This document shows positions 1 to 38,215 of a DNA stretch of 38,215 nt, piece after piece. This stretch comes from a virus. Lineage: Duplodnaviria > Heunggongvirae > Uroviricota > Caudoviricetes. The DNA lies in IMG/VR virus record IMGVR_UViG_2671180710_000023, positions 1 to 38,215 of that record, one strand, 5' to 3'. The number at the start of each line of letters is the position of its first letter. Position 1 is the first letter of the stretch. Both the position numbers and the translations under genes were made by a program. A model generated the notes under the pieces. The model worked only from the letters and a program-made list of their open reading frames with translations, had not been told where the DNA came from and did no database searches.

Positions 1-522
1 TCTGCACTGCCCGTTGGTGTGCCTGTTCCGTGGCCCTCAGCCACACCGCCAGCAGGGTGGCTGAAATGTAACGGAGCAGCATTTTCTTCTGAAATGTACC
101 CCAATCTGGCAAAGGCTTATCCTACAAATAAACTACCGGATCTACGGGGTGAATTTATCCGTGGCTGGGATGACGGACGTGGCGTGGATGCGGGGCGAGC
201 CTTGCTAAGGCTTCAGGATGACTCTTTTGAAGCGCACAGGCATGAGTCCTTTTTTTATGCGGGTATTTCACGCAATGAAATCCCATTAAAAAATCTTCCA
301 AGTTCAGACGAGATGCTGACTTTAAGTTCCACAACTAATGCCTTGTCACCGGACGGTATTGATGCCACCAATTCGTTAATTGGTAATGACGATTACAACT
401 GTCTTATCGAAGGGAATAAAAATAACAAACGAACAGCAACGGGTCTAAGTACCAGTATTGTCGGCGCAACTGAAACCCGCCCCCGTAACATTGCGTTTAA
501 TTACATCGTAAGGGCGGCATAG
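1..522 (+). CDS. Silent tail-fibre C-terminal (receptor-binding tip) cassette 1, 5-prime end cut by window edge
   Basis: Frame 1 from position 1 encodes SALPVGVPVPWPSATPPAGWLKCNGAAFSSEMYP...LPDLRGEFIRGWDDGRG (tail-collar-like block) and ends ETRPRNIAFNYIVRAA; same conserved ends as the expressed fibre C-terminus; no RBS or ATG of its own. Confidence 0.6.
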   Translation, partial: SALPVGVPVPWPSATPPAGWLKCNGAAFSSEMYPNLAKAYPTNKLPDLRGEFIRGWDDGRGVDAGRALLRLQDDSFEAHRHESFFYAGISRNEIPLKNLPSSDEMLTLSSTTNALSPDGIDATNSLIGNDDYNCLIEGNKNNKRTATGLSTSIVGATETRPRNIAFNYIVRAA

Positions 523-541
523 AAACGTTGGTTTGGGGGAA
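516..541 (+). other. hix/gix-like 26-bp crossover site (GGCATAGAAACG-TT-GGTTTGGGGGAA) at cassette 1/2 junction
   Basis: Reverse complement TTCCCCCAAACC-AA-CGTTTCTATGCC resembles Gin/Hin/Cin-family sites (12-2-12 layout with AAACC...GGTTT core); inverted relative to the site at 3054-3079. Confidence 0.6.
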
Positions 542-964
542 GGCTCAGCGCTGCCCGTTGGTGTGCCCGTTCCGTGGCCCTCAGCCACACCGCCAGCAGG
601 GTGGCTGAAATGTAACGGCGCAGCATTTTCTTCTGAAATGTACCCCAATCTGGCAAAGGCTTATCCTACAAATAAATTACCGGATTTACGGGGTGAGTTT
701 ATTCGCGGCTGGGATGACGGGCGGGGAATTGATTCAGGACGCACTCTACTTTCGTTACAGGGCGATATGTTTAAATCGCACAGTCATTACTTCCGTGAAA
801 TATGGGGTGCAAATGGACCAGATGGAACTGGTGGACCGTACATTGTCGGGGCGGATACAAACGGTTCGAGAATAAATTTAGGCACTATAGAAACCAGTGC
901 ACCTGGTGGTTCAGAAACCCGTCCCCGTAACATTGCATTTAATTACATCGTAAGAGCCGTATGA
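533..964 (+). CDS. Silent tail-fibre C-terminal cassette 2
   Basis: ORF opens in the crossover site with GEGSALPVGVPVPWP..., has a unique middle and ends ETRPRNIAFNYIVRAV; apparent TTG start lies inside the site, consistent with a fusion-only module. Confidence 0.6.
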   Translation: MGEGSALPVGVPVPWPSATPPAGWLKCNGAAFSSEMYPNLAKAYPTNKLPDLRGEFIRGWDDGRGIDSGRTLLSLQGDMFKSHSHYFREIWGANGPDGTGGPYIVGADTNGSRINLGTIETSAPGGSETRPRNIAFNYIVRAV

Positions 965-983
965 AAACGTTGGTTTGGGGGAA
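958..983 (+). other. hix/gix-like crossover site (CGTATGAAAACG-TT-GGTTTGGGGGAA) at cassette 2/3 junction
   Basis: Same half-site GGTTTGGGGGAA and central TT as the other cassette sites. Confidence 0.6.
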
Positions 984-1448
984 GGCTCTGCACTGCCCGT
1001 TGGTGTGCCTGTTCCGTGGCCCTCAGCCACACCGCCAGCAGGGTGGCTGAAATGTAACGGAGCAGCATTTTCTTCTGAAATGTACCCCAAACTGGCAAAG
1101 GCTTACCCCGCGAATAAATTACCGGATTTACGGGGTGAGTTTATTCGTGGCTGGGATGACGGGCGCGGGATTGATCCTGGTCGCCAGTTGCTTGGGTGGC
1201 AGAAAGGTACTTTGGTTGGTGGTAGAGATGACAATGATGCCGCAGTTGATATTTCATATATGAGTAACGGAAATAGTATTGATTACGGTGGCGATAAAAC
1301 ATTTTCAACGAATTACCGGAGTGATTATTTATGGTATGCAATTCTGGGTAACGTCACTGGTCGTGCCAAAGCTGCTTTAAGTGGGTCCTTTTTTAATGTA
1401 ACTCGTCCACGCAACATCGCCTTTAACTACATTGTGAGAGCAGCATAG
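975..1448 (+). CDS. Silent tail-fibre C-terminal cassette 3
   Basis: Conserved N-terminal tail-collar block, unique middle, conserved end VTRPRNIAFNYIVRAA. Confidence 0.6.
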   Translation: MGEGSALPVGVPVPWPSATPPAGWLKCNGAAFSSEMYPKLAKAYPANKLPDLRGEFIRGWDDGRGIDPGRQLLGWQKGTLVGGRDDNDAAVDISYMSNGNSIDYGGDKTFSTNYRSDYLWYAILGNVTGRAKAALSGSFFNVTRPRNIAFNYIVRAA

Positions 1449-1467
1449 AAACGTTGGTTTGGGGGAA
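1442..1467 (+). other. hix/gix-like crossover site (AGCATAGAAACG-TT-GGTTTGGGGGAA) at cassette 3/4 junction
   Basis: Near-identical to the site at 516-541. Confidence 0.6.
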
Positions 1468-1962
1468 GGCTCTGCACTGCCCGTTGGTGTGCCCGTTCCG
1501 TGGCCCTCAGCCACACCGCCAGCAGGGTGGCTGAAATGTAACGGCGCAGCATTTTCTTCTGAAATGTACCCCAAACTGGCAAAAGCCTACCCCGCGAATA
1601 AATTACCGGATTTACGGGGTGAGTTTATTCGTGGCTGGGATGACGGGCGGGGAATTGATTCAGGGCGTTCCTTGCTTAATGCACAATCACATTCGGTTAT
1701 AGATCATATTCACTATATGGAGTTATGGACTGGTGAAGGGCTTGCCGCAAATAGCACCCGTGCAGGAACAAACCCTGGTATACTGGCTACATACGGTGAT
1801 GGCGGGATTGTTAAAACAGATGAGTCAGGTGTAAAAGTTCCATCTTCACTACGTGCTATTGGCACTCGTGGTGTTTATAGATTAGGTGCCAACGGAGGGA
1901 ATACAGGAACGGAAAACCGCCCCCGTAATATTGCGTTTAACTATATTGTAAGGGCTACTTAA
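1459..1962 (+). CDS. Silent tail-fibre C-terminal cassette 4 (the only cassette followed by its own Tfa gene)
   Basis: Conserved N-terminal block, unique middle, end ENRPRNIAFNYIVRAT; its TAA stop overlaps the ATG of the downstream tfa (TAATGA). Confidence 0.6.
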   Translation: MGEGSALPVGVPVPWPSATPPAGWLKCNGAAFSSEMYPKLAKAYPANKLPDLRGEFIRGWDDGRGIDSGRSLLNAQSHSVIDHIHYMELWTGEGLAANSTRAGTNPGILATYGDGGIVKTDESGVKVPSSLRAIGTRGVYRLGANGGNTGTENRPRNIAFNYIVRAT

Positions 1963-2579
1963 TGAATAATGCTGCTGCAGTACTTGATCAGAATGGTATC
2001 GCTATAACTGCAGGCGATATTACCGTTTATAACTACGATGCTGAAAACCGTGAATATCTCTCTGCCACTGTTGAGTATCTCGCTTATGGTGTTGGAATTC
2101 CGGCTCACTCATGCATTGACGCGCCACCAGAAAAACGCCCCGGCTTCGCTGTCTGTCGTGATACCGACCAGAACATCTGGAAATATGTTCCAGACCACAG
2201 AGGAGAAACGGTTTACAGCACAGAGAATGGTAACGCTGTGCAAATCACACGACCGGGAGATTACCCTCCTGATACGACGGTGAAACAGCCAGCTACTATC
2301 TATGATGTCTGGGATGGTGAGACCTGGGTGACAGATGCGGGACGACAGCACGCAGCAGAACTGGAAGCTGCCGGAGCGCATCGTCAGCAACTTGAGGAAC
2401 AGGCAATGGCATCTGTTGAGCTTATAAATCTCAAACTACGAGCCGGACGCCGATTGACGCCCCAGGAGACGGAAAAACTAAACGCCGTGCTTGATTTCAT
2501 AGATGTGCTTAATGCGACTGACATCAGCACTGCACCGGATATCAACTGGCCGGAAATGCCTCTGGCAGCAGCCAGTTGA
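1962..2579 (+). CDS. Tail fibre assembly chaperone (Tfa; Mu U / lambda Tfa family)
   Basis: C-terminal VLDFIDVLNATDISTAPDINWPEMP matches the Tfa-family signature (lambda Tfa ...TSTAPDIEWP...); HRGETVY motif; coupled to cassette 4; convergent with the expressed fibre gene. Confidence 0.75.
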   Translation: MNNAAAVLDQNGIAITAGDITVYNYDAENREYLSATVEYLAYGVGIPAHSCIDAPPEKRPGFAVCRDTDQNIWKYVPDHRGETVYSTENGNAVQITRPGDYPPDTTVKQPATIYDVWDGETWVTDAGRQHAAELEAAGAHRQQLEEQAMASVELINLKLRAGRRLTPQETEKLNAVLDFIDVLNATDISTAPDINWPEMPLAAAS

Positions 2580-2585
2580 ATATAA

Positions 2586-3554
2586 CTAAGCCGCCCTCAC
2601 GATATAGTTAAATGCAATATTGCGGGGGCGGGTTTCACTACCACCTGTGTTACCAATACTTCCTCGTGAATGAAGCGTTGGTGATGGAGTCAAACTCCCT
2701 CCTGTATTTGTGGCATCAAGCCCCCTGCCTTGTGTATATGTTTTTTTGAAAATCGTAGCCAACTCCCATTCATCTTTTGTGTCATATCCATCGTTAGCTA
2801 CAACAATATGGCGGTGTTTTTCCAACATCCCGTTTTGAATGCTCAATAAAGCGCGTGCCGCATCAATTCCTCGCCCATCATCCCAGCCACGGATAAATTC
2901 TCCGCGTAAATCCGGTAATTTATTCGCGGGGTAGGCTTTTGCCAGTTTGGGGTACATTTCAGAAGAAAATGCTGCACCGTTACATTTCAGCCAGCCCGTT
3001 GGTGGTGTTGCTAAGGGCCACGGAACGGGCACACCAACGGGCAGTGCAGAGCCTTCTCCCAAACCAAGGTTTTTGACAAACAGCGCAGGCTCAGGAATAT
3101 CTGCGCCGTTCTGGTCTTTAGCCAGCTTTTCCGCCAGCTTGTTCAGTACCGTAGTCGCAAAGTTTGGATCATTACCGAGAGCGTCAGCCAGCTCTTTAAG
3201 CGTATCCAGTGTCTCAGGGGCGCTGCCTGCAAGTGCCGCAAGTGCTTTGGACACAAACTCCGTCGTCGCCAGCTTTTTGCTGTTATCACCATTTGCAGGT
3301 GTAGGTGCTGTTGGTGTGCCGGTGAATGTCGGACTGGCTTTCGTCGCGTACTGGGTATGCGGGTCAACTGCCGCGATATGTGCAGCCAGGTCTGTTCCGC
3401 TTTTTTCGACCTTCTGTTTGAGGTATGACGTTCGGCTGGCCAGTTGTTTAGCCTGGCGGTTAGAAATTCCGTCAGGTCCGCCCAGAACGGGGTCAGAGAC
3501 CTCAATCTGGTAGATGCCGTCTTCCCACTGCGGGGTTTCGGGTAGATTTGCCAT
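2586..3554 (-). CDS. Tail fibre protein (constant N-terminal part fused to the currently expressed variable C-terminal tip)
   Basis: 322 aa; N-terminal constant region; from residue ~163 (LGLGEGSALPVGVPVPWP...) shares the cassette conserved block and ends ETRPRNIAFNYIVRAA; sits after baseplate genes in Mu S position. Confidence 0.8.
   Translation of the reverse strand: MANLPETPQWEDGIYQIEVSDPVLGGPDGISNRQAKQLASRTSYLKQKVEKSGTDLAAHIAAVDPHTQYATKASPTFTGTPTAPTPANGDNSKKLATTEFVSKALAALAGSAPETLDTLKELADALGNDPNFATTVLNKLAEKLAKDQNGADIPEPALFVKNLGLGEGSALPVGVPVPWPLATPPTGWLKCNGAAFSSEMYPKLAKAYPANKLPDLRGEFIRGWDDGRGIDAARALLSIQNGMLEKHRHIVVANDGYDTKDEWELATIFKKTYTQGRGLDATNTGGSLTPSPTLHSRGSIGNTGGSETRPRNIAFNYIVRAA
3054..3079 (+). 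other. hix/gix-like crossover site inside expressed tail fibre gene (TTCTCCCAAACC-AA-GGTTTTTGACAA)
   Basis: At the constant/variable junction (codons FVKNLGLGEG); inverted repeat of cassette sites; resembles gix TTCCTGTAAACCGAGGTTTTGGATAA as recalled. Confidence 0.6.
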
Positions 3555-3556
3555 AA

Positions 3557-4135
3557 TTAACTGCTCCCGTGGTTGTAACTACCGTCATAACGGGTAGTAC
3601 TGTTGTATCGAATGGCGACAGACTGATATTCCAGACTTGCCAGATGACAGCGAGCCGGAGCAAAGGCAGCAAGCGTCTGACGTAACAGCGCCGCCTGATC
3701 GTTAGTGATGGGTTGTTGAAGGATGACGCGATAGACTGCCCAGGCTTGTGCATCACCATGGACGAAAAGCCCGTTGTACGTGTGTCTGCCGTCATAGCCA
3801 ATCTGCCCCGTACCTTCAATCAGATCCACTTCGCCGAAGCCAAAACGGCGGATAATTTCCCGGATTGACCACGGTGTTCCTTTATAGCGGTGTAGCTCAA
3901 TAGCGGATTTGATAAGCATGCGGCGTACATCGTCCGATTCCGCCAGTTCCCAGCCATCGCCGAACAGCGAGAACTGCTCGCCAAGCCATGGCAGCGCGGA
4001 ACTGTCGACAATATCGACGAGACCGACCATCAGTACGCTCAGGTCGATGTTATCCAGCCGTCGGGCCAGTCTTCCCAGCGTTCTGAGACTGATATCACCC
4101 TCAAGCGGTGGCGGGAGTTGTAGCACCTCAGCCAT
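3557..4135 (-). CDS. Baseplate/tail-fibre attachment protein (P2 gpI / Mu gp48-like)
   Basis: 192-aa ORF immediately upstream of the tail fibre gene in the baseplate cluster; start overlaps stop of the J-like gene. Confidence 0.6.
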   Translation of the reverse strand: MAEVLQLPPPLEGDISLRTLGRLARRLDNIDLSVLMVGLVDIVDSSALPWLGEQFSLFGDGWELAESDDVRRMLIKSAIELHRYKGTPWSIREIIRRFGFGEVDLIEGTGQIGYDGRHTYNGLFVHGDAQAWAVYRVILQQPITNDQAALLRQTLAAFAPARCHLASLEYQSVAIRYNSTTRYDGSYNHGSS

Positions 4136-25790: not shown

Positions 25791-26777
25791 CTATTTAAGA
25801 ATAAAACGGTACTTACTGTCAGGAGTGCTTTGCTGATCAAGTAGCAGTGAACGACATGGAGCAGTCAAAACCCGAGCATAACTACCATCAGGGCTTATGT
25901 TAATGTAACAAACCTTGCCCTTAACACTATAATTTTCGGGGACGGATGCCTTTGCTGATACAGTAAATTTAAGGGTATGCCAGCCCGTTTTTTGCTTGTA
26001 GCTTGAAACCGAATGGAAATCATCTGAGTACTTATTTAACCCTGGAAACATGCTGCGCAGTGCGGGGATGGAATCTTCTATTATTTTATCGTTGGTTTTA
26101 ATGTTAAAAACGCTGGTTTCAGTAGAAGCTACTGCTTTGGCATTTCCCCATTTACCAGCGAACACAATCATTCCCACGAAAAATATTGCTACAAGAACTA
26201 ACACTCCCCCCAACACTACTACATGAGGCTTCCGGCTTCTGGTTGGTACAGTTGCGACTGATTTTGCACCGCTTTCCGATGGAGGTGATAGAGTTTTACT
26301 CTCATCACGAATATTCAGCAGATCATCAAAATAACCAAACACAGCCTGCAACTGCTCTTTGTCTAGGCCTTTAAGATGGGTTGTACCGAAATGCTTCAGA
26401 CAGTATCTGTCACGGTCAAGACGATACCCAGGGTCAGTAAGCGCCATTATTTTGCTGACCAGAAGATTACAGTCCTTCATATTCTGGATCTGTTGTGCAT
26501 ATCTCTGAAGGATCTCAACCGCACCATGATAATCAGCCGCAGTCATTTCATTAACTGTTTTGGTATTAAGTTTCGTGTGGATCGTCATCCATAGCTCGCG
26601 CTTACTTTCCCCCAGATCAACCAATTCATCCATCAATCTGTGTAAATCGCGTTTTTGCAGCAACGAAATTGGTTGCTGGGCCGAAGGAAGTATGTCAGCA
26701 GAATAGTTATGAATGGTAACATCACCGCTGACAACGTTACCCACATCCCCGTTAACTGTTTGCTTCTCTTTACTCAT
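25791..26777 (-). CDS. Single-pass membrane protein (repressor operon, translationally coupled to repressor)
   Basis: ATGA overlap with repressor stop; ~180-aa cytoplasmic N-domain, TM helix (VVVLGGVLVLVAIFFVGMIVFAG), ~120-aa C-domain; AT-rich codon usage unlike structural genes. Confidence 0.55.
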   Translation of the reverse strand: MSKEKQTVNGDVGNVVSGDVTIHNYSADILPSAQQPISLLQKRDLHRLMDELVDLGESKRELWMTIHTKLNTKTVNEMTAADYHGAVEILQRYAQQIQNMKDCNLLVSKIMALTDPGYRLDRDRYCLKHFGTTHLKGLDKEQLQAVFGYFDDLLNIRDESKTLSPPSESGAKSVATVPTRSRKPHVVVLGGVLVLVAIFFVGMIVFAGKWGNAKAVASTETSVFNIKTNDKIIEDSIPALRSMFPGLNKYSDDFHSVSSYKQKTGWHTLKFTVSAKASVPENYSVKGKVCYINISPDGSYARVLTAPCRSLLLDQQSTPDSKYRFILK

Positions 26778-27235
26778 CTTCTCTTGGTATTTTTGTTCAC
26801 TATTCCACCTGTTCCTATGGTTACGTTACCTTTGATAACATTCCCCAGAACATCTCCATGAATAACCTGTTCCGCCCGTTCTCTGGAGGAGCCAGTAGTC
26901 AAGGCCGACAAAACTGAACCTTTGACCTGTAATGGTGCCTGCCGGTAGTGCTGCAGTAACTCCATTTCATCACGTGATAAAGTTATACCTGATGACTCCC
27001 CGGTAAGAATGAACTGTACATTGGCCCCAATTCTTGCAAAGGCTGCAAGTAACTCACCTCCGGGAACAGCAACCCCTCGTTCATATTTCCCCCACATTTC
27101 TCTTGAAACGCCACAAAGGGCTGCTACTTCAGCCTGCTTGAGTGATAACCGCGAACGCTCAGCTTTGAACCGCGACGCGCAAAGAGAATCAAAATTCACA
27201 TAAACCTCATTGACAATGAGAACTATAGTTCTCAT
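26774..27235 (-). CDS. XRE-family HTH repressor (c-repressor analogue)
   Basis: HTH_3-like LSLKQAEVAALCGVSREMWGKYERGVAVPGGELLAAFARIGANVQFIL; divergent from Ner-like gene across operator-bearing promoter; true start may be GTG near 27199. Confidence 0.7.
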   Translation of the reverse strand: MRTIVLIVNEVYVNFDSLCASRFKAERSRLSLKQAEVAALCGVSREMWGKYERGVAVPGGELLAAFARIGANVQFILTGESSGITLSRDEMELLQHYRQAPLQVKGSVLSALTTGSSRERAEQVIHGDVLGNVIKGNVTIGTGGIVNKNTKRR

Positions 27236-28763: not shown

Positions 28764-30533
28764 ATGAATGCTGCCCTGACTGAACGACTGGTTTATGTCG
28801 CCCGCGCGGCACGTGACGCGGGGCATGGTAAACGCGGTGCAATATACGACGCTGCCTGTGCTGAACTTGGCATGTCCCGCGCCACTCTGCTGCGCAGGCT
28901 GAAGGAGGTATCTGTGACTGATAAACGCAAAAAACGCGCCGATGCCGGGCGCAGCGCCCTGACCCGCGACGAAGCCGCGCTGATATCTGCCACACTACGT
29001 GAGGCCACCCGCAAGAACGGTAAGCGTCTCTATTCCATCGCGGATGCAGTGGAAACCCTGCGGGCTAACGGCTTTATCTCCGCAGGCAGAACAGATGAAA
29101 CCACCGGTGAGTTTTTCCCGTTGTCCGAAGATGCCATCAGTCGTGCCCTGCGTAACTATGGCCTGCACCCGGAACAACTGGATGCCCCTGCGCCGCATAC
29201 CGAAGTGGCCAGTCTGCATCCCAATCATGTCTGGCAGATTGACGCCTCACTCTGCACGCTTTACTACCTGAGCAATGGACATAAAGGGCTGCAGGTGATG
29301 GACAGCGCGAAGTTCTACAAGAACAAGCCCGCTAACCTTGCCCGTATCGCCAGTGACCGCGTGTGGAGTTACGAGATTACCGACCATGCCAGCGGCTGGA
29401 TTTACGTTGAGTATGTGACGGGCGCGGAATCAGGTGAGAACCTGTGTTCTGTGCTTATCAACGCCATGCAGGAGCGTGGCGGCGCAGACGTGCTGCACGG
29501 CGTGCCGAAAATACTCTATCTCGACCCCGGCTCGGCAAACACCGCGGGTATGACGAAAAACATGTGCCGCTCACTGGGCATCGACCTGATAGCGCACAAG
29601 CCGCATAACGCCCGCGCCACCGGACAGGTGGAAAAGGCGCGTGACATTATCGAACGCAAGCTGGAGCCGGGTCTGAAATTCCGGCCGGTTCACAGTCTGG
29701 AAGAACTCAACGCGCTGGCCGCGAAATGGCGCAGCCACTTTAACGCAACAGCTGTTCACAGCCGCCACGGTAAAACCCGCACGGATATCTGGCTGAAGAT
29801 TACTGCTGAGCAGCTGAAAAAAGCGCCTTCCGTTGAGGTATGCCGTGAACTGGCTGTGGCGACACCAGAACTCCGCAAAGTCACGCCAAAACTTCGTGTC
29901 TCGTTCCGGGGCACTGAATTTGACGTATCAACGGTACCGGGCGTACTGGTTGGTGAAAAACTGATGATTACCCGTAACCCGTGGCGCAGCGATGTGGCAC
30001 AGGTGGTTCTGACCGGTGAGGACGGCCACGAGACGTTCTTCCTGGTCGAAGAGGTCAGAAAGAACGAGTTTGGCTTTGCTGAAGGCGCGGCGGTATTTGG
30101 CGAAAGTTACAAAGCCCTGCCGGAAACACCGGCACAGACGGCGGCAAAAGAAACCGAAGCGCTGGTCACCGGTACAGACAACGCCGCAGATGCAGCTGCC
30201 GCACGCAAGGCGAAGGCGCTGCCGTTCGGCGGGCGGCTTGACCCGTATAAACATATTGATGACGCCACACTTCCGGCCTGTATACCGAAGCGCGGTCAGG
30301 TCTCTGATGTACGCAGACCGCGCACTGAACAACGTCCCATGACTCATGTGGAGGCCGCGAAAGCCCTGCGCGATAAGTTCAGCGCCGACGGCCTTACCTG
30401 GACGCCGGAACATTACCGCCAGTTAACGGCACAGTACCCGGACGGCGTACCGGAAGCCGCACTGGATGAAGTAGTGGCCACGCTGACCACGCCGGCCCGC
30501 AGCAGCGTTATCAGCATTGTTAACGGCAACTGA
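28764..30533 (+). CDS. DDE transposase (Mu A-like, rve/integrase-core family)
   Basis: 589 aa; HVWQIDAS and LYLDPGSANT blocks consistent with DDE catalytic core; followed by overlapping AAA+ B gene. Confidence 0.8.
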   Translation: MNAALTERLVYVARAARDAGHGKRGAIYDAACAELGMSRATLLRRLKEVSVTDKRKKRADAGRSALTRDEAALISATLREATRKNGKRLYSIADAVETLRANGFISAGRTDETTGEFFPLSEDAISRALRNYGLHPEQLDAPAPHTEVASLHPNHVWQIDASLCTLYYLSNGHKGLQVMDSAKFYKNKPANLARIASDRVWSYEITDHASGWIYVEYVTGAESGENLCSVLINAMQERGGADVLHGVPKILYLDPGSANTAGMTKNMCRSLGIDLIAHKPHNARATGQVEKARDIIERKLEPGLKFRPVHSLEELNALAAKWRSHFNATAVHSRHGKTRTDIWLKITAEQLKKAPSVEVCRELAVATPELRKVTPKLRVSFRGTEFDVSTVPGVLVGEKLMITRNPWRSDVAQVVLTGEDGHETFFLVEEVRKNEFGFAEGAAVFGESYKALPETPAQTAAKETEALVTGTDNAADAAAARKAKALPFGGRLDPYKHIDDATLPACIPKRGQVSDVRRPRTEQRPMTHVEAAKALRDKFSADGLTWTPEHYRQLTAQYPDGVPEAALDEVVATLTTPARSSVISIVNGN

Positions 30534-30543
30534 GGAGGGAAAC

Positions 30544-31710
30544 ATGCTGGTACTGAAGCAGCAACTGAAAGAGGCCCGTATTCCACAGGCGGTGGTGGCG
30601 AGAGCTGTCGATGTTTCTGAGGCCACGCTGGCCCAGATTGTGAATCATAACGCGTGGCCCCGCACCAGCCCCGGAGAAGTGCGCCGGCGTCTTGCGTCCT
30701 GGCTGGAAAGTCAGGGAATTGATACAGCGAAGAGTTTTGATGCTGTACAGGGCGCGGCCACGCCCCGTACAGCGGGTACCACAGATAAAACGAGCCTCAG
30801 TGAGGAAGAGAATATGTTACTCAAAAAACAGGTGTTATTTCCAGCAACCAAAAAAGCGTTTGGTCTTTTTCGTGACCCGTTCGCCGACGAAGCCATGCAG
30901 GGTTCTGATGATGTGTTCACCACACCAGACATTCGCTACGTGCGTGAGGCGTTGTACCAGACAGCCCGTCATGGTGGGTTTATGGCCGTCATCGGTGAGT
31001 CCGGTGCGGGTAAATCCACGCTGCGCCGCGACCTGACTGAACGTATTAACCGCGAGAATGCGCCAGTAATTGTTATTGAGCCATACATCATCGCTATGGA
31101 AGATAACGATGTGAAAGGGAAAACCCTGAAGGCAGCAGCTATTGCCGAAGCCATTATCAGTACCATCGCACCACTGGAAAGCATCAGACGCAGTCAGGAC
31201 GCCCGCTTTCGCCAGTTGCATCGCGTCCTGAAAGACAGCAGCCAGGCGGGGTTCAGCCACGTTCTGGTGATTGAGGAGGCCCACAGTCTGCCCATTCCGA
31301 CACTGAAACACCTCAAACGCTTTTTTGAGCTGGAGTCCGGTTTCAAAAAACTGCTGTCCATCGTGCTGATTGGCCAGCCGGAACTGGCGACAAAACTGTC
31401 TGAACGCAATATGGAAGTCCGTGAAGTCGTTCAGCGCTGTGAGGTGGTCGAACTTCTGCCTCTGGACAATAACCTTGAAGAATTTCTGACGTTCAAACTG
31501 CAACGGGCCGGTAAACAGCTGACGGACATTATGGACGCCAGCGCAGTGGATGCCATACGTGCCCGCCTGAGCAATCCGGGAAGTCACCGTAAAAATATGG
31601 TCAGCCTGCTGTATCCGCTGGCCGTCAGTAACCTGGTAATAGCCGCCATGAATCTGGCAGCTGAAATCGGGGTTCCACAGGTCAACGCTGACGTTGTCAA
31701 AGGGGTTTAA
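30544..31710 (+). CDS. Transposition ATPase (Mu B / TniB-like AAA+)
   Basis: ATG 30544 preceded by GAGGAGGG; Walker A GESGAGKST, Walker B VLVIEEAH; immediately after transposase. Confidence 0.8.
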   Translation: MLVLKQQLKEARIPQAVVARAVDVSEATLAQIVNHNAWPRTSPGEVRRRLASWLESQGIDTAKSFDAVQGAATPRTAGTTDKTSLSEEENMLLKKQVLFPATKKAFGLFRDPFADEAMQGSDDVFTTPDIRYVREALYQTARHGGFMAVIGESGAGKSTLRRDLTERINRENAPVIVIEPYIIAMEDNDVKGKTLKAAAIAEAIISTIAPLESIRRSQDARFRQLHRVLKDSSQAGFSHVLVIEEAHSLPIPTLKHLKRFFELESGFKKLLSIVLIGQPELATKLSERNMEVREVVQRCEVVELLPLDNNLEEFLTFKLQRAGKQLTDIMDASAVDAIRARLSNPGSHRKNMVSLLYPLAVSNLVIAAMNLAAEIGVPQVNADVVKGV

Positions 31711-36669: not shown

Positions 36670-38215
36670 GATGACGCCGCAGAATGCGCGTATCTGGTAT
36701 ATCAGCCCGAAAGAGCCGCACAATAAAACGGCTTATTTTGTCGATGCGCCGTATCAGGTCGATAAAATCAGCGCACAAACTTTCGCCGACTGGCAGAAAA
36801 AAGCCGCCGACATTGCGCTCTCTTTGCCAGAGCTTAACCCCTATATTCCTGACGATTTCTCGCTGATTAAGTCAGAGAAGAAATATGACCATCCAGAGCT
36901 GATTGTTGATGAGTCGAATCTGCGTGTGGTGTATGCGCCAAGCCGTTATTTTTCCAGCGAACCCAAAGCTGATGTCAGCCTGATTTTGCGTAATCCGAAA
37001 GCCATGGACAGCGCCCGCAATCAGGTGATGTTTGCGCTCAATGATTATCTCGCAGGGCTGGCGCTTGATCAGTTAAGCAACCAGGCGTCGGTTGGTGGCA
37101 TAAGTTTTTCCACCAACGCTAACAACGGCCTTATGGTTAATGCTAATGGTTACACCCAGCGTCTGCCGCAGCTGTTCCAGGCATTGCTGGAGGGCTACTT
37201 TAGCTATACCGCCACGGAAGATCAGCTTGAGCAGGCAAAGTCCTGGTATAACCAGATGATGGATTCCGCAGAAAAGGGCAAAGCGTTCGAGCAGGCGATT
37301 ATGCCCGCGCAGATGCTCTCGCAAGTGCCGTACTTCTCGCGAGATGAACGGCGCAAAATTTTGCCCTCCATTACGTTGAAAGAGGTGCTGGCCTATCGCG
37401 ACGCCTTAAAATCAGGGGCTCGACCAGAGTTTATGGTTATTGGCAACATGACCGAAGCCCAGGCAACAACGCTGGCACGCGATGTGCAAAAACAGTTGGG
37501 CGCTGATGGTTCAGAGTGGTGTCGTAACAAAGATGTCGTGGTCGATAAAAAACAATCCGTCATCTTTGAAAAAGCCGGTAACAGCACCGACTCCGCACTG
37601 GCAGCGGTATTTGTACCGACTGGCTACGATGAATACACCAGCTCAGCCTATAGCTCACTGTTGGGGCAGATCGTACAGCCGTGGTTCTACAATCAGTTGC
37701 GTACCGAAGAACAGTTGGGCTATGCCGTGTTTGCATTCCCAATGAGCGTGGGGCGTCAGTGGGGCATGGGCTTCCTTTTGCAAAGCAATGATAAACAGCC
37801 TTCATTCTTGTGGGAGCGTTACAAGGCGTTTTTCCCAACCGCAGAGGCAAAATTGCGGGCGATGAAGCCAGAAGAGTTTGCGCAAATCCAGCAGGCGGTA
37901 ATTACCCAGATGCTGCAGGCACCGCAAACGCTCGGCGAAGAAGCATCGAAGTTAAGTAAAGATTTCGATCGCGGCAATATGCGCTTCGATTCGCGTGATA
38001 AAATCGTGGCCCAGATTAAACTGCTGACGCCGCAAAAACTGGCCGATTTCTTCCATCAGGCGGTAGTCGAGCCGCAAGGCATGGCTATCCTGTCGCAGAT
38101 TTCCGGCAGCCAGAATGGGAAAGCCGAATATGTACACCCTGAAGGCTGGAAAGTGTGGGAGAACGTCAGCGCGTTGCAGCAAACAATGCCCCTGATGAGT
38201 GAAAAGAATGAGTGA
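36659..38215 (+). CDS. ptrA: Host protease III (pitrilysin) gene, 3-prime portion truncated by prophage insertion; first ~3 codons of the ORF are phage-end sequence
   Basis: Translation from TPQNARIWYISPKEPHNKTAYFVDAPYQ... to ...QTMPLMSEKNE matches my recollection of the C-terminal half of E. coli PtrA (M16 family); homology begins abruptly at about 36670. Confidence 0.7.
   Translation: MSDQMTPQNARIWYISPKEPHNKTAYFVDAPYQVDKISAQTFADWQKKAADIALSLPELNPYIPDDFSLIKSEKKYDHPELIVDESNLRVVYAPSRYFSSEPKADVSLILRNPKAMDSARNQVMFALNDYLAGLALDQLSNQASVGGISFSTNANNGLMVNANGYTQRLPQLFQALLEGYFSYTATEDQLEQAKSWYNQMMDSAEKGKAFEQAIMPAQMLSQVPYFSRDERRKILPSITLKEVLAYRDALKSGARPEFMVIGNMTEAQATTLARDVQKQLGADGSEWCRNKDVVVDKKQSVIFEKAGNSTDSALAAVFVPTGYDEYTSSAYSSLLGQIVQPWFYNQLRTEEQLGYAVFAFPMSVGRQWGMGFLLQSNDKQPSFLWERYKAFFPTAEAKLRAMKPEEFAQIQQAVITQMLQAPQTLGEEASKLSKDFDRGNMRFDSRDKIVAQIKLLTPQKLADFFHQAVVEPQGMAILSQISGSQNGKAEYVHPEGWKVWENVSALQQTMPLMSEKNE

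Follow-up and report, generated by a model that had tools for sequence, protein, structure and literature searches.

A probable host-range switch of the multiple-inversion type in a Mu-like prophage of Escherichia coli

We analysed a stretch of 38,215 nucleotides (nt), positions 1 to 38,215 of the IMG/VR virus record IMGVR_UViG_2671180710_000023 and referred to here as the window, which carries a Mu-like transposable prophage of Escherichia coli. Its first 3,554 nt hold the last gene of the late operon, a tail-fibre gene, together with a row of four silent tip cassettes (c1 to c4) on the opposite strand. This locus is very probably a host-range switch of the prophage, operating by multiple inversion of the Gin/Pin/Cin/Min kind and built like the Min system of plasmid p15B. 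That inversion occurs in this prophage family is proved by natural isomers of the array, and the window copy is presumably still switching. In the proposed mechanism, the late operon would end in a single fibre gene whose constant 5' part (Sc) is fused at a crossover site, designated S0, with any one of five or more interchangeable 3' tips, which are collar-plus-head modules resembling that of T4 gp37. An invertase would cut two inverted sites at their central AA and flip the DNA between them. Since the array consists of single cassettes and one composite segment, successive inversions would permute the order and orientation of the segments, so that any tip could reach Sc in frame, and a population of lysogens would release phage with different tips.

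Crossover sites, fusions and tips

We found four crossover sites of 26 base pairs (bp) in the window (Table 1). S0 lies in the expressed fibre gene, and S2, S3 and S4, which precede c2, c3 and c4, are inverted relative to it. All four have the core AA and inner halves reading TTC(T/C)CCCAAACC, and their shared 19-nt pattern, TTCYCCCAAACCAASGTTT, occurs four times, against 0.00 times in 100 shuffles. Taken as pairs of S0 with S2, S3 or S4, they have the 26-bp inverted organization of the sites of the Gin/Hin/Cin/Pin/Min (Din) systems. Homology between the Sc-tip E gene and the cassettes ends at the central dinucleotide. The inner half-site is the 5' end of the cassette itself, while the outer half belongs to the neighbour, which is the stop-codon region of the prior cassette, Sc or the flank of the invertase gene. 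As the outer half is set by neighbouring DNA, good dyad symmetry is seen in S0 only (9 of 12 positions); the cassette sites match at 5 of 12, with the core AAACC-AA-CGTTT and a degenerate outer half. Concerning known sites, the pix sites of e14, taken from the MG1655 record, read TTCTCCCAAACC-AA-GGTTTTCGAGAG and TTCTCCCAAACC-AA-CGTTTATGAAAA and are nearly identical to S0, and the gix site from the Mu record, TTCCTGTAAACC-GA-GGTTTTGGATAA, is of the same 12-2-12 type as the window sites. The window sites also fit the 26-bp consensus and the Phi2 site, GGTTTGGGGGAA, described for E. coli EC958 (PMC4134206). Judged by their sequence, they are pix-type sites.

When inversion at the central AA was carried out in silico between S0 and S4, S3 or S2, the products were in-frame fibres of 331, 321 and 307 amino acids (aa), ending in c4, c3 and c2, respectively. 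The hybrid junction predicted to arise, TTCCCCCAAACCAAGGTTTTTGACAA, is exactly the S0 seen in other genomes. Neither a sigma-70-like promoter on the plus strand nor a terminator was found in positions 1-3700, and no Shine-Dalgarno sequence was found ahead of the TTG codons of the cassettes. Lacking both promoter and Shine-Dalgarno sequence, the cassettes would be silent until fused. The locus thereby has the make-up of a p15B Min-type array, namely more than two sites, one constant 5' part and several promoterless 3' parts that fuse to it in frame.

The Pfam domain Collar (PF07484) was detected in 5/5 tips, with E values of 1e-13 to 4e-15. When aligned, the five tips display a near-invariant start of about 75 aa, a variable middle of 55-90 aa and an invariant end, RPRNIAFNYIVRA. 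The expressed fibre protein matched the receptor-binding tip of T4 gp37 (2xgf) with an E value of 2.3e-16, both the collar and the C-terminal NIAFNYIVR being aligned, and also matched short-tail-fibre structures; the matches to the T4 gp37 and gp12 tips were both significant. Residues 137-167, at the end of Sc, matched the Mu tail fibre S (8ju3) with an E value of 3e-7. The chain of gp37 extends to the tip and then returns, and conserved ends around a variable middle are what such a path would lead one to expect. The start and end of each tip probably fold together as the collar, with the variable middle probably being the receptor-binding part, and the tips presumably differ in receptor specificity. 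An HxH motif directly follows the collar in 4/5 tips (Table 1), and c3, the only tip without it, may have a different head fold. HxH after the collar is also present in the metal-binding T4 gp37 and gp12 tips.

The start of each cassette forms an inverted repeat of 211-265 nt, with 82-93% identity, with positions 2808-3073 in the fibre gene, and the cassette ends form shorter repeats with 2586-2645. The fibre gene is convergent with tfa, whose start overlaps the stop codon of c4 (TAATG), and no second tfa homolog was found in the window. Upstream of the fibre gene in the late tail operon of the minus strand lies gpI, followed by J, W, V, D, X and the tape measure gene. In a gapped alignment with the complete cassette of E. 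coli JB2 (543 nt), the available part of c1 agreed at 525 of 528 nt. Position 1 falls about 16 nt inside c1, just past the expected end of its site, and looks like a contig or assembly break within repeated invertible DNA rather than a biological boundary.

Table 1. Positions of the array, its crossover sites and other features of the window
Feature	Position	Strand	Remarks
c1, silent tip cassette	1-522	+	Collar E 1.4e-14; HRH motif at ~235-243; window edge removes about the first 16 nt and its site
c2, silent tip cassette	529-964	+	Collar E 3.8e-15; HSH motif at ~775-783; single segment, 442 nt between crossover points
c3, silent tip cassette	971-1448	+	Collar E 3.7e-14; single segment, 484 nt
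c4, silent tip cassette	1455-1962	+	Collar E 2.1e-14; HIH motif at ~1702-1710; left arm of composite 1612-nt segment
tfa, tail-fibre assembly (chaperone) gene	1962-2579	+	Pfam Caudo_TAP E 1.5e-25
tip E, tip expressed at present	2586-3066	-	HRH motif at ~2812-2820; right arm of composite segment
Sc, constant 5' part of fibre gene	3067-3554	-	start codon and GGGAG Shine-Dalgarno present
Expressed fibre gene (Sc and tip E)	2586-3554	-	322-aa open reading frame
Composite segment (c4-tfa-tip E')	1455-3066		
S0, crossover site	3054-3079	+	TTCTCCCAAACC-AA-GGTTTTTGACAA; at constant/variable junction of expressed fibre gene
S2, crossover site	516-541	-	TTCCCCCAAACC-AA-CGTTTCTATGCC as read on minus strand
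S3, crossover site	958-983	-	TTCCCCCAAACC-AA-CGTTTTCATACG as read on minus strand
S4, crossover site	1442-1467	-	TTCCCCCAAACC-AA-CGTTTCTATGCT as read on minus strand
gpI	3557-4135	-	
HTH repressor-like gene	26774-27235	-	
rve DDE transposase	28764-30533		
MuB-like AAA protein	30517-31710		
Right end of element	~36,671-36,674		inside host M16-peptidase gene

A previous sequence-only reading of this DNA had described four promoterless plus-strand cassettes encoding tips with a conserved start, a variable middle and a conserved end, and had taken the cassette sites to be inverted copies of the one at the constant/variable junction of the fibre gene. Cassettes, repeats and sites were all found where it had placed them, the alignment of the tips bore out the three-part pattern, and the fusion to a new tip that it foresaw was in frame. 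It had however passed over tfa, which lies inside the invertible DNA. Its statement that a site precedes each cassette is correct for c2, c3 and c4, but not for c1; the first 16 nt or so of that cassette are cut off by the window edge, and its site would lie beyond them. Likewise, the 12-2-12 dyad layout of Gin/Hin/Cin/Min sites that it reported is a good description of S0, and less so of the cassette sites with their degenerate outer halves.

Natural isomers and the invertase of related prophages

Arrays of this type were found as natural isomers in related genomes. One prophage, located beside yehR in mouse-associated E. coli, was found with four arrangements of its array, represented by strains 8178, FEA3, DEF2, and 3-72 together with DEF10, the last two having the same annotated gene order. 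The isomers were supplied by mouse isolates from Harbin and Guangzhou, three of the arrangements being those of sibling isolates that belong to a single study. Between strains the segments, delimited at the central dinucleotide, were 100% identical, and the four yehR loci compared (L002, L005, L006 and L007) did not differ in the 1500 nt flanking the array on either side. The window's own cassettes are present, with 99.7-100% identity, in strains A31, JB2, MS20655 and 12089, where their order and orientation are different. The c2 segment has counterparts of 99.8% identity in A31, JB2 and a P2-like prophage, c3 has the opposite orientation in JB2, and the composite segment is 95-99.7% conserved in all arrays examined. 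The DNA between sites thus occurs in both orientations in relatives of the window copy, as in a Din system. As for MS20655 (NZ_CP082080, 5847-6472), its composite segment has decayed, with a tfa of 498 nt adjoined by a 207-nt tip fragment, and c1 is fused to Sc.

In every array examined, the order was Sc, co-oriented single cassettes, one composite segment (tip-tfa-tip'), anti-oriented single cassettes and the invertase gene. We counted the isomers open to such an array with a breadth-first search of the allowed inversions, and obtained 4 for three sites, 12 for four, 48 for five, 240 for six and 80,640 for nine; the 4 states of the three-site case present 3 alternative tips. The window, with four visible sites, implies at least five, and hence 48 isomers and five tips. 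Since JB2 has all of the window cassettes plus one more, a sixth tip may lie outside the window, perhaps a cassette of the 472-nt type that A31 and JB2 contain.

The window itself contains no serine recombinase, as had been noted in the sequence-only reading; the best hit in a tblastn search with the A31 invertase had an E value of 0.36. On the other hand, in 11/11 related Mu-like prophage assemblies (A31, 8178 in three assemblies, FEA3, DEF2, DEF10, 3-72, JB2, MS20655 and 12089) the outermost cassette is immediately followed by the gene for a Gin/Pin-family recombinase of 190 aa, transcribed away from the array. The protein has Resolvase and HTH_7 domains, its best match in the PDB is the Gin structure 4m6f (E value 6e-91), and its catalytic Ser9 stands in the context YIRVSTNDQ. 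It is 81.5% identical to PinE and 71.6% identical to Gin. Taking into account that the invertase adjoins the array in all of these relatives, the earlier expectation of an invertase just beyond position 1 is well founded: the position is that observed in the relatives, and for the window copy it is what they would predict. The window copy would have an invertase just left of position 1, or would use one in trans. PinQ acts in trans on the e14 segment (PMC12529663), and the action of Pin-family invertases on segments of other prophages has been discussed (PMC4134206). As Pin-family enzymes act in trans, a missing invertase alone would not lock the array.

Several points weigh against reading the window copy as an active switch. 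The invertase and the outermost site lie outside the window. The junction between the prophage and its host in the window was found in 0 E. coli genomes of the collection at a query coverage of at least 80%. The three assemblies of 8178 display a single configuration, which means either that switching is too slow to differ in every sample or that assemblies show only the majority form. The only tfa in the window runs antisense to the late operon, an odd arrangement if the fibre operon is fully functional, and the presumed differences in receptor specificity among the tips are read only from sequence divergence. Finally, the Fis-bound recombinational enhancer of known Din systems is situated in cis, inside the 5' part of the invertase gene, and a strict search for the Fis consensus gave no match in the invertase genes of the relatives, nor in gin. 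The first 240 nt of these genes align well with gin and pinE DNA, but the protein is conserved in the same stretch, and therefore the conserved DNA does not allow an enhancer to be inferred.

It is quite improbable that the window copy is a frozen relic, whose invertase has been lost or inactivated and whose fibre is locked on tip E. Such a reading is favoured by the absence of an invertase within the window, by the occurrence of damaged relatives (the invertase is frameshifted in strain 97.3, and tfa and a tip are truncated in MS20655) and by the window configuration, in which tfa is antisense and the single cassettes all lie on the same side, an arrangement that is not clearly optimal. It is countered by the state of the array itself, in which 4/4 sites are intact, with an identical inner half and the AA core, and 5/5 tip open reading frames are open. 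Moreover, the invertase is intact in 11/11 close relatives with this array type, and E. coli commonly carries several Pin-family invertases, which work in trans.

There is still less to be said for RecA-dependent homologous recombination between the inverted repeats as the source of the rearrangements, a very remote prospect that we rejected. Repeats of 210-265 bp with 82-93% identity would in principle be long enough. However, the cassette 5' repeats begin to differ at nt 22-40 and have 7-23 mismatches within their first 200 nt, and crossovers scattered over them would leave mosaics, whereas all segments are 100% identical in the four isomers. The crossovers among the yehR isomers are confined to no more than 22-40 nt around the sites, despite repeats of more than 200 nt, and this indicates site-specific exchange rather than recombination of the RecA type. 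In addition, homology does not extend beyond the central AA, and the array always has a dedicated invertase beside it.

The most improbable alternative is that the plus-strand cassettes are tandem paralogues expressed independently from TTG as small tail proteins: although each has a possible TTG start and RefSeq annotates homologs as separate coding sequences ('phage tail protein'), we rejected it because promoter-like sites and Shine-Dalgarno sequences are missing, the TTG lies inside the crossover site, the reading frames start exactly where the variable part of the expressed gene starts, the products would have neither a fibre shaft nor a baseplate-attachment part, and the same cassettes are fused to Sc in other genomes, such as c1 in MS20655 (1026-nt fibre gene).

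Relation to known inversion systems

Multiple inversion of the Min type, which we prefer for the locus, is a mechanism known since Mu, P1 and p15B, and the present results leave its current understanding unchanged. The p15B switch was reportedly first described in that plasmid in 1990, in work attributed to Iida in 1990 and to Sandmeier, Iida and Arber in 1990/1992. It has 6 sites and 240 isomers, the same number as that obtained for six sites with the window architecture. Compared by description, the two have in common a Gin/Pin-family invertase beside more than two 26-bp sites, overlapping segments, and a constant 5' part with many 3' tips. The window copy however belongs to a chromosomal Mu-like prophage, while p15B is a P1-like plasmid. 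A P1-like plasmid, pKOr024_2, was found to have the same family of sites, an invertase with 96.3% identity, and shared cassettes. The earlier comparison with p15B Min, as going beyond two-state systems, is apt. Min is a serine recombinase whose multiple inversions give variable tail fibres (PMC6109161).

The system of e14 in E. coli K-12, Pin with its P segment, is similar in its nearly identical sites, in its invertase (81.5% identity) and in having Collar-type tips on a constant part. It differs in having two sites and two states, and each of its tips has its own tfa (tfaP and tfaE), whereas the window has at least five tips and one tfa. Concerning Gin and the G segment of Mu, the module likewise ends the tail operon, the invertase adjoins it and is transcribed away, Gin is the best structural homolog, and the end of Sc in the window resembles Mu S. 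In Mu, on the other hand, the core of the two sites is GA, and there are two states and the pairs Sv-U and U'-Sv'. The window backbone also exists with a Mu-like two-state segment: in E. coli O68:H12 97.3 (NZ_CP061758, 4025-6975), Sc and gpI are 99.7% identical to those of the window and are followed by an Sv-tfa/tfa'-Sv' segment, the whole variable module having been exchanged at the crossover site. Fragments of Tn3 and IS4321, along with a second recombinase gene, adjoin the frameshifted invertase gene of that strain.

A P2-like prophage of the enteropathogenic E. coli strain E2348/69 carries a fibre-tip shufflon with a Hin homolog, verified by polymerase chain reaction (Goldberg et al. 2014, PMC4272514). 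With 3 inverted repeats, it has 4 variants and 3 alternative C-termini, just as the window architecture predicts for three sites, but it has fewer cassettes and a P2-like backbone. Multiple inversions likewise give a single adhesin-like protein different C-terminal ends in the R64 shufflon (Rci, pilV). The recombinase there, Rci, is of the tyrosine type and works with sfx sites, and a shufflon of the R64/Rci type was rejected for the window, whose sites are pix/gix-like and whose relatives have a recombinase of the serine type.

Prophage backbone, distribution and orientation of tfa

The transposase, MuB-like and repressor-like genes of the element are listed in Table 1, and Mor/gp16 is found near its right end. 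Early genes on the plus strand and late genes on the minus strand diverge from about 27.3 kb, unlike in Mu. In the closest complete genomes, the same prophage family occupies many different chromosomal sites, as is expected for a transposable phage. The particular Sc of the window is present in 52 of 5426 complete E. coli genomes, while matches to some part of the 3.6-kb region were obtained in 2097 of the 5426, which makes the locus one of a known and common kind. No close relative was found in the phage collection, where the best match had 20% query coverage and 80.7% identity.

A P2-like prophage and a P1-like plasmid have in common with these arrays the invertase (93-96% aa identity), the sites and some of the cassettes. 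The plasmid, pKOr024_2 (NZ_CP147095, 2214-9889), has 9 sites and 8 silent cassettes in a row. The P2-like prophage (NZ_CP145668, 3489-7103) has 5 sites and carries the 442-nt cassette twice, in opposite orientations; the 5' part of its fibre gene is annotated as fragmented.

The orientation of tfa is the one aspect of the locus with some potential for novelty. In the window, tip E is expressed without a co-transcribed tfa. In the inversion model tfa is antisense in exactly half of the isomers, that of the window included, and tip E is never co-expressed with it; both orientations were seen in natural genomes. These properties raise the possibility, in our view a doubtful one, that the state of the inversion gates both the tip and the fibre chaperone. 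The shufflon may in that case be an on/off switch for fibre assembly, or it may rely on the tfa of other prophages. Some gp37-like tips may also fold without Tfa, which would be unexpected for a tip of this type, or tfa may be driven by an unrecognized promoter.

The locus is a well-delimited example for annotation, as silent cassettes of this kind are routinely mis-annotated as separate 'phage tail proteins'. In E. coli, a single module of invertase and cassettes, with shared sites, extends across Mu-like, P2-like and P1-like backbones, each array having 3 to 9 sites, and this spread is of use both in predicting the host range of phages and in the engineering of tips that can be swapped. For the temperate phage, such a module would be a way to hedge its host range, with one lysogen giving rise to particles that bear any of at least five receptor-binding tips.

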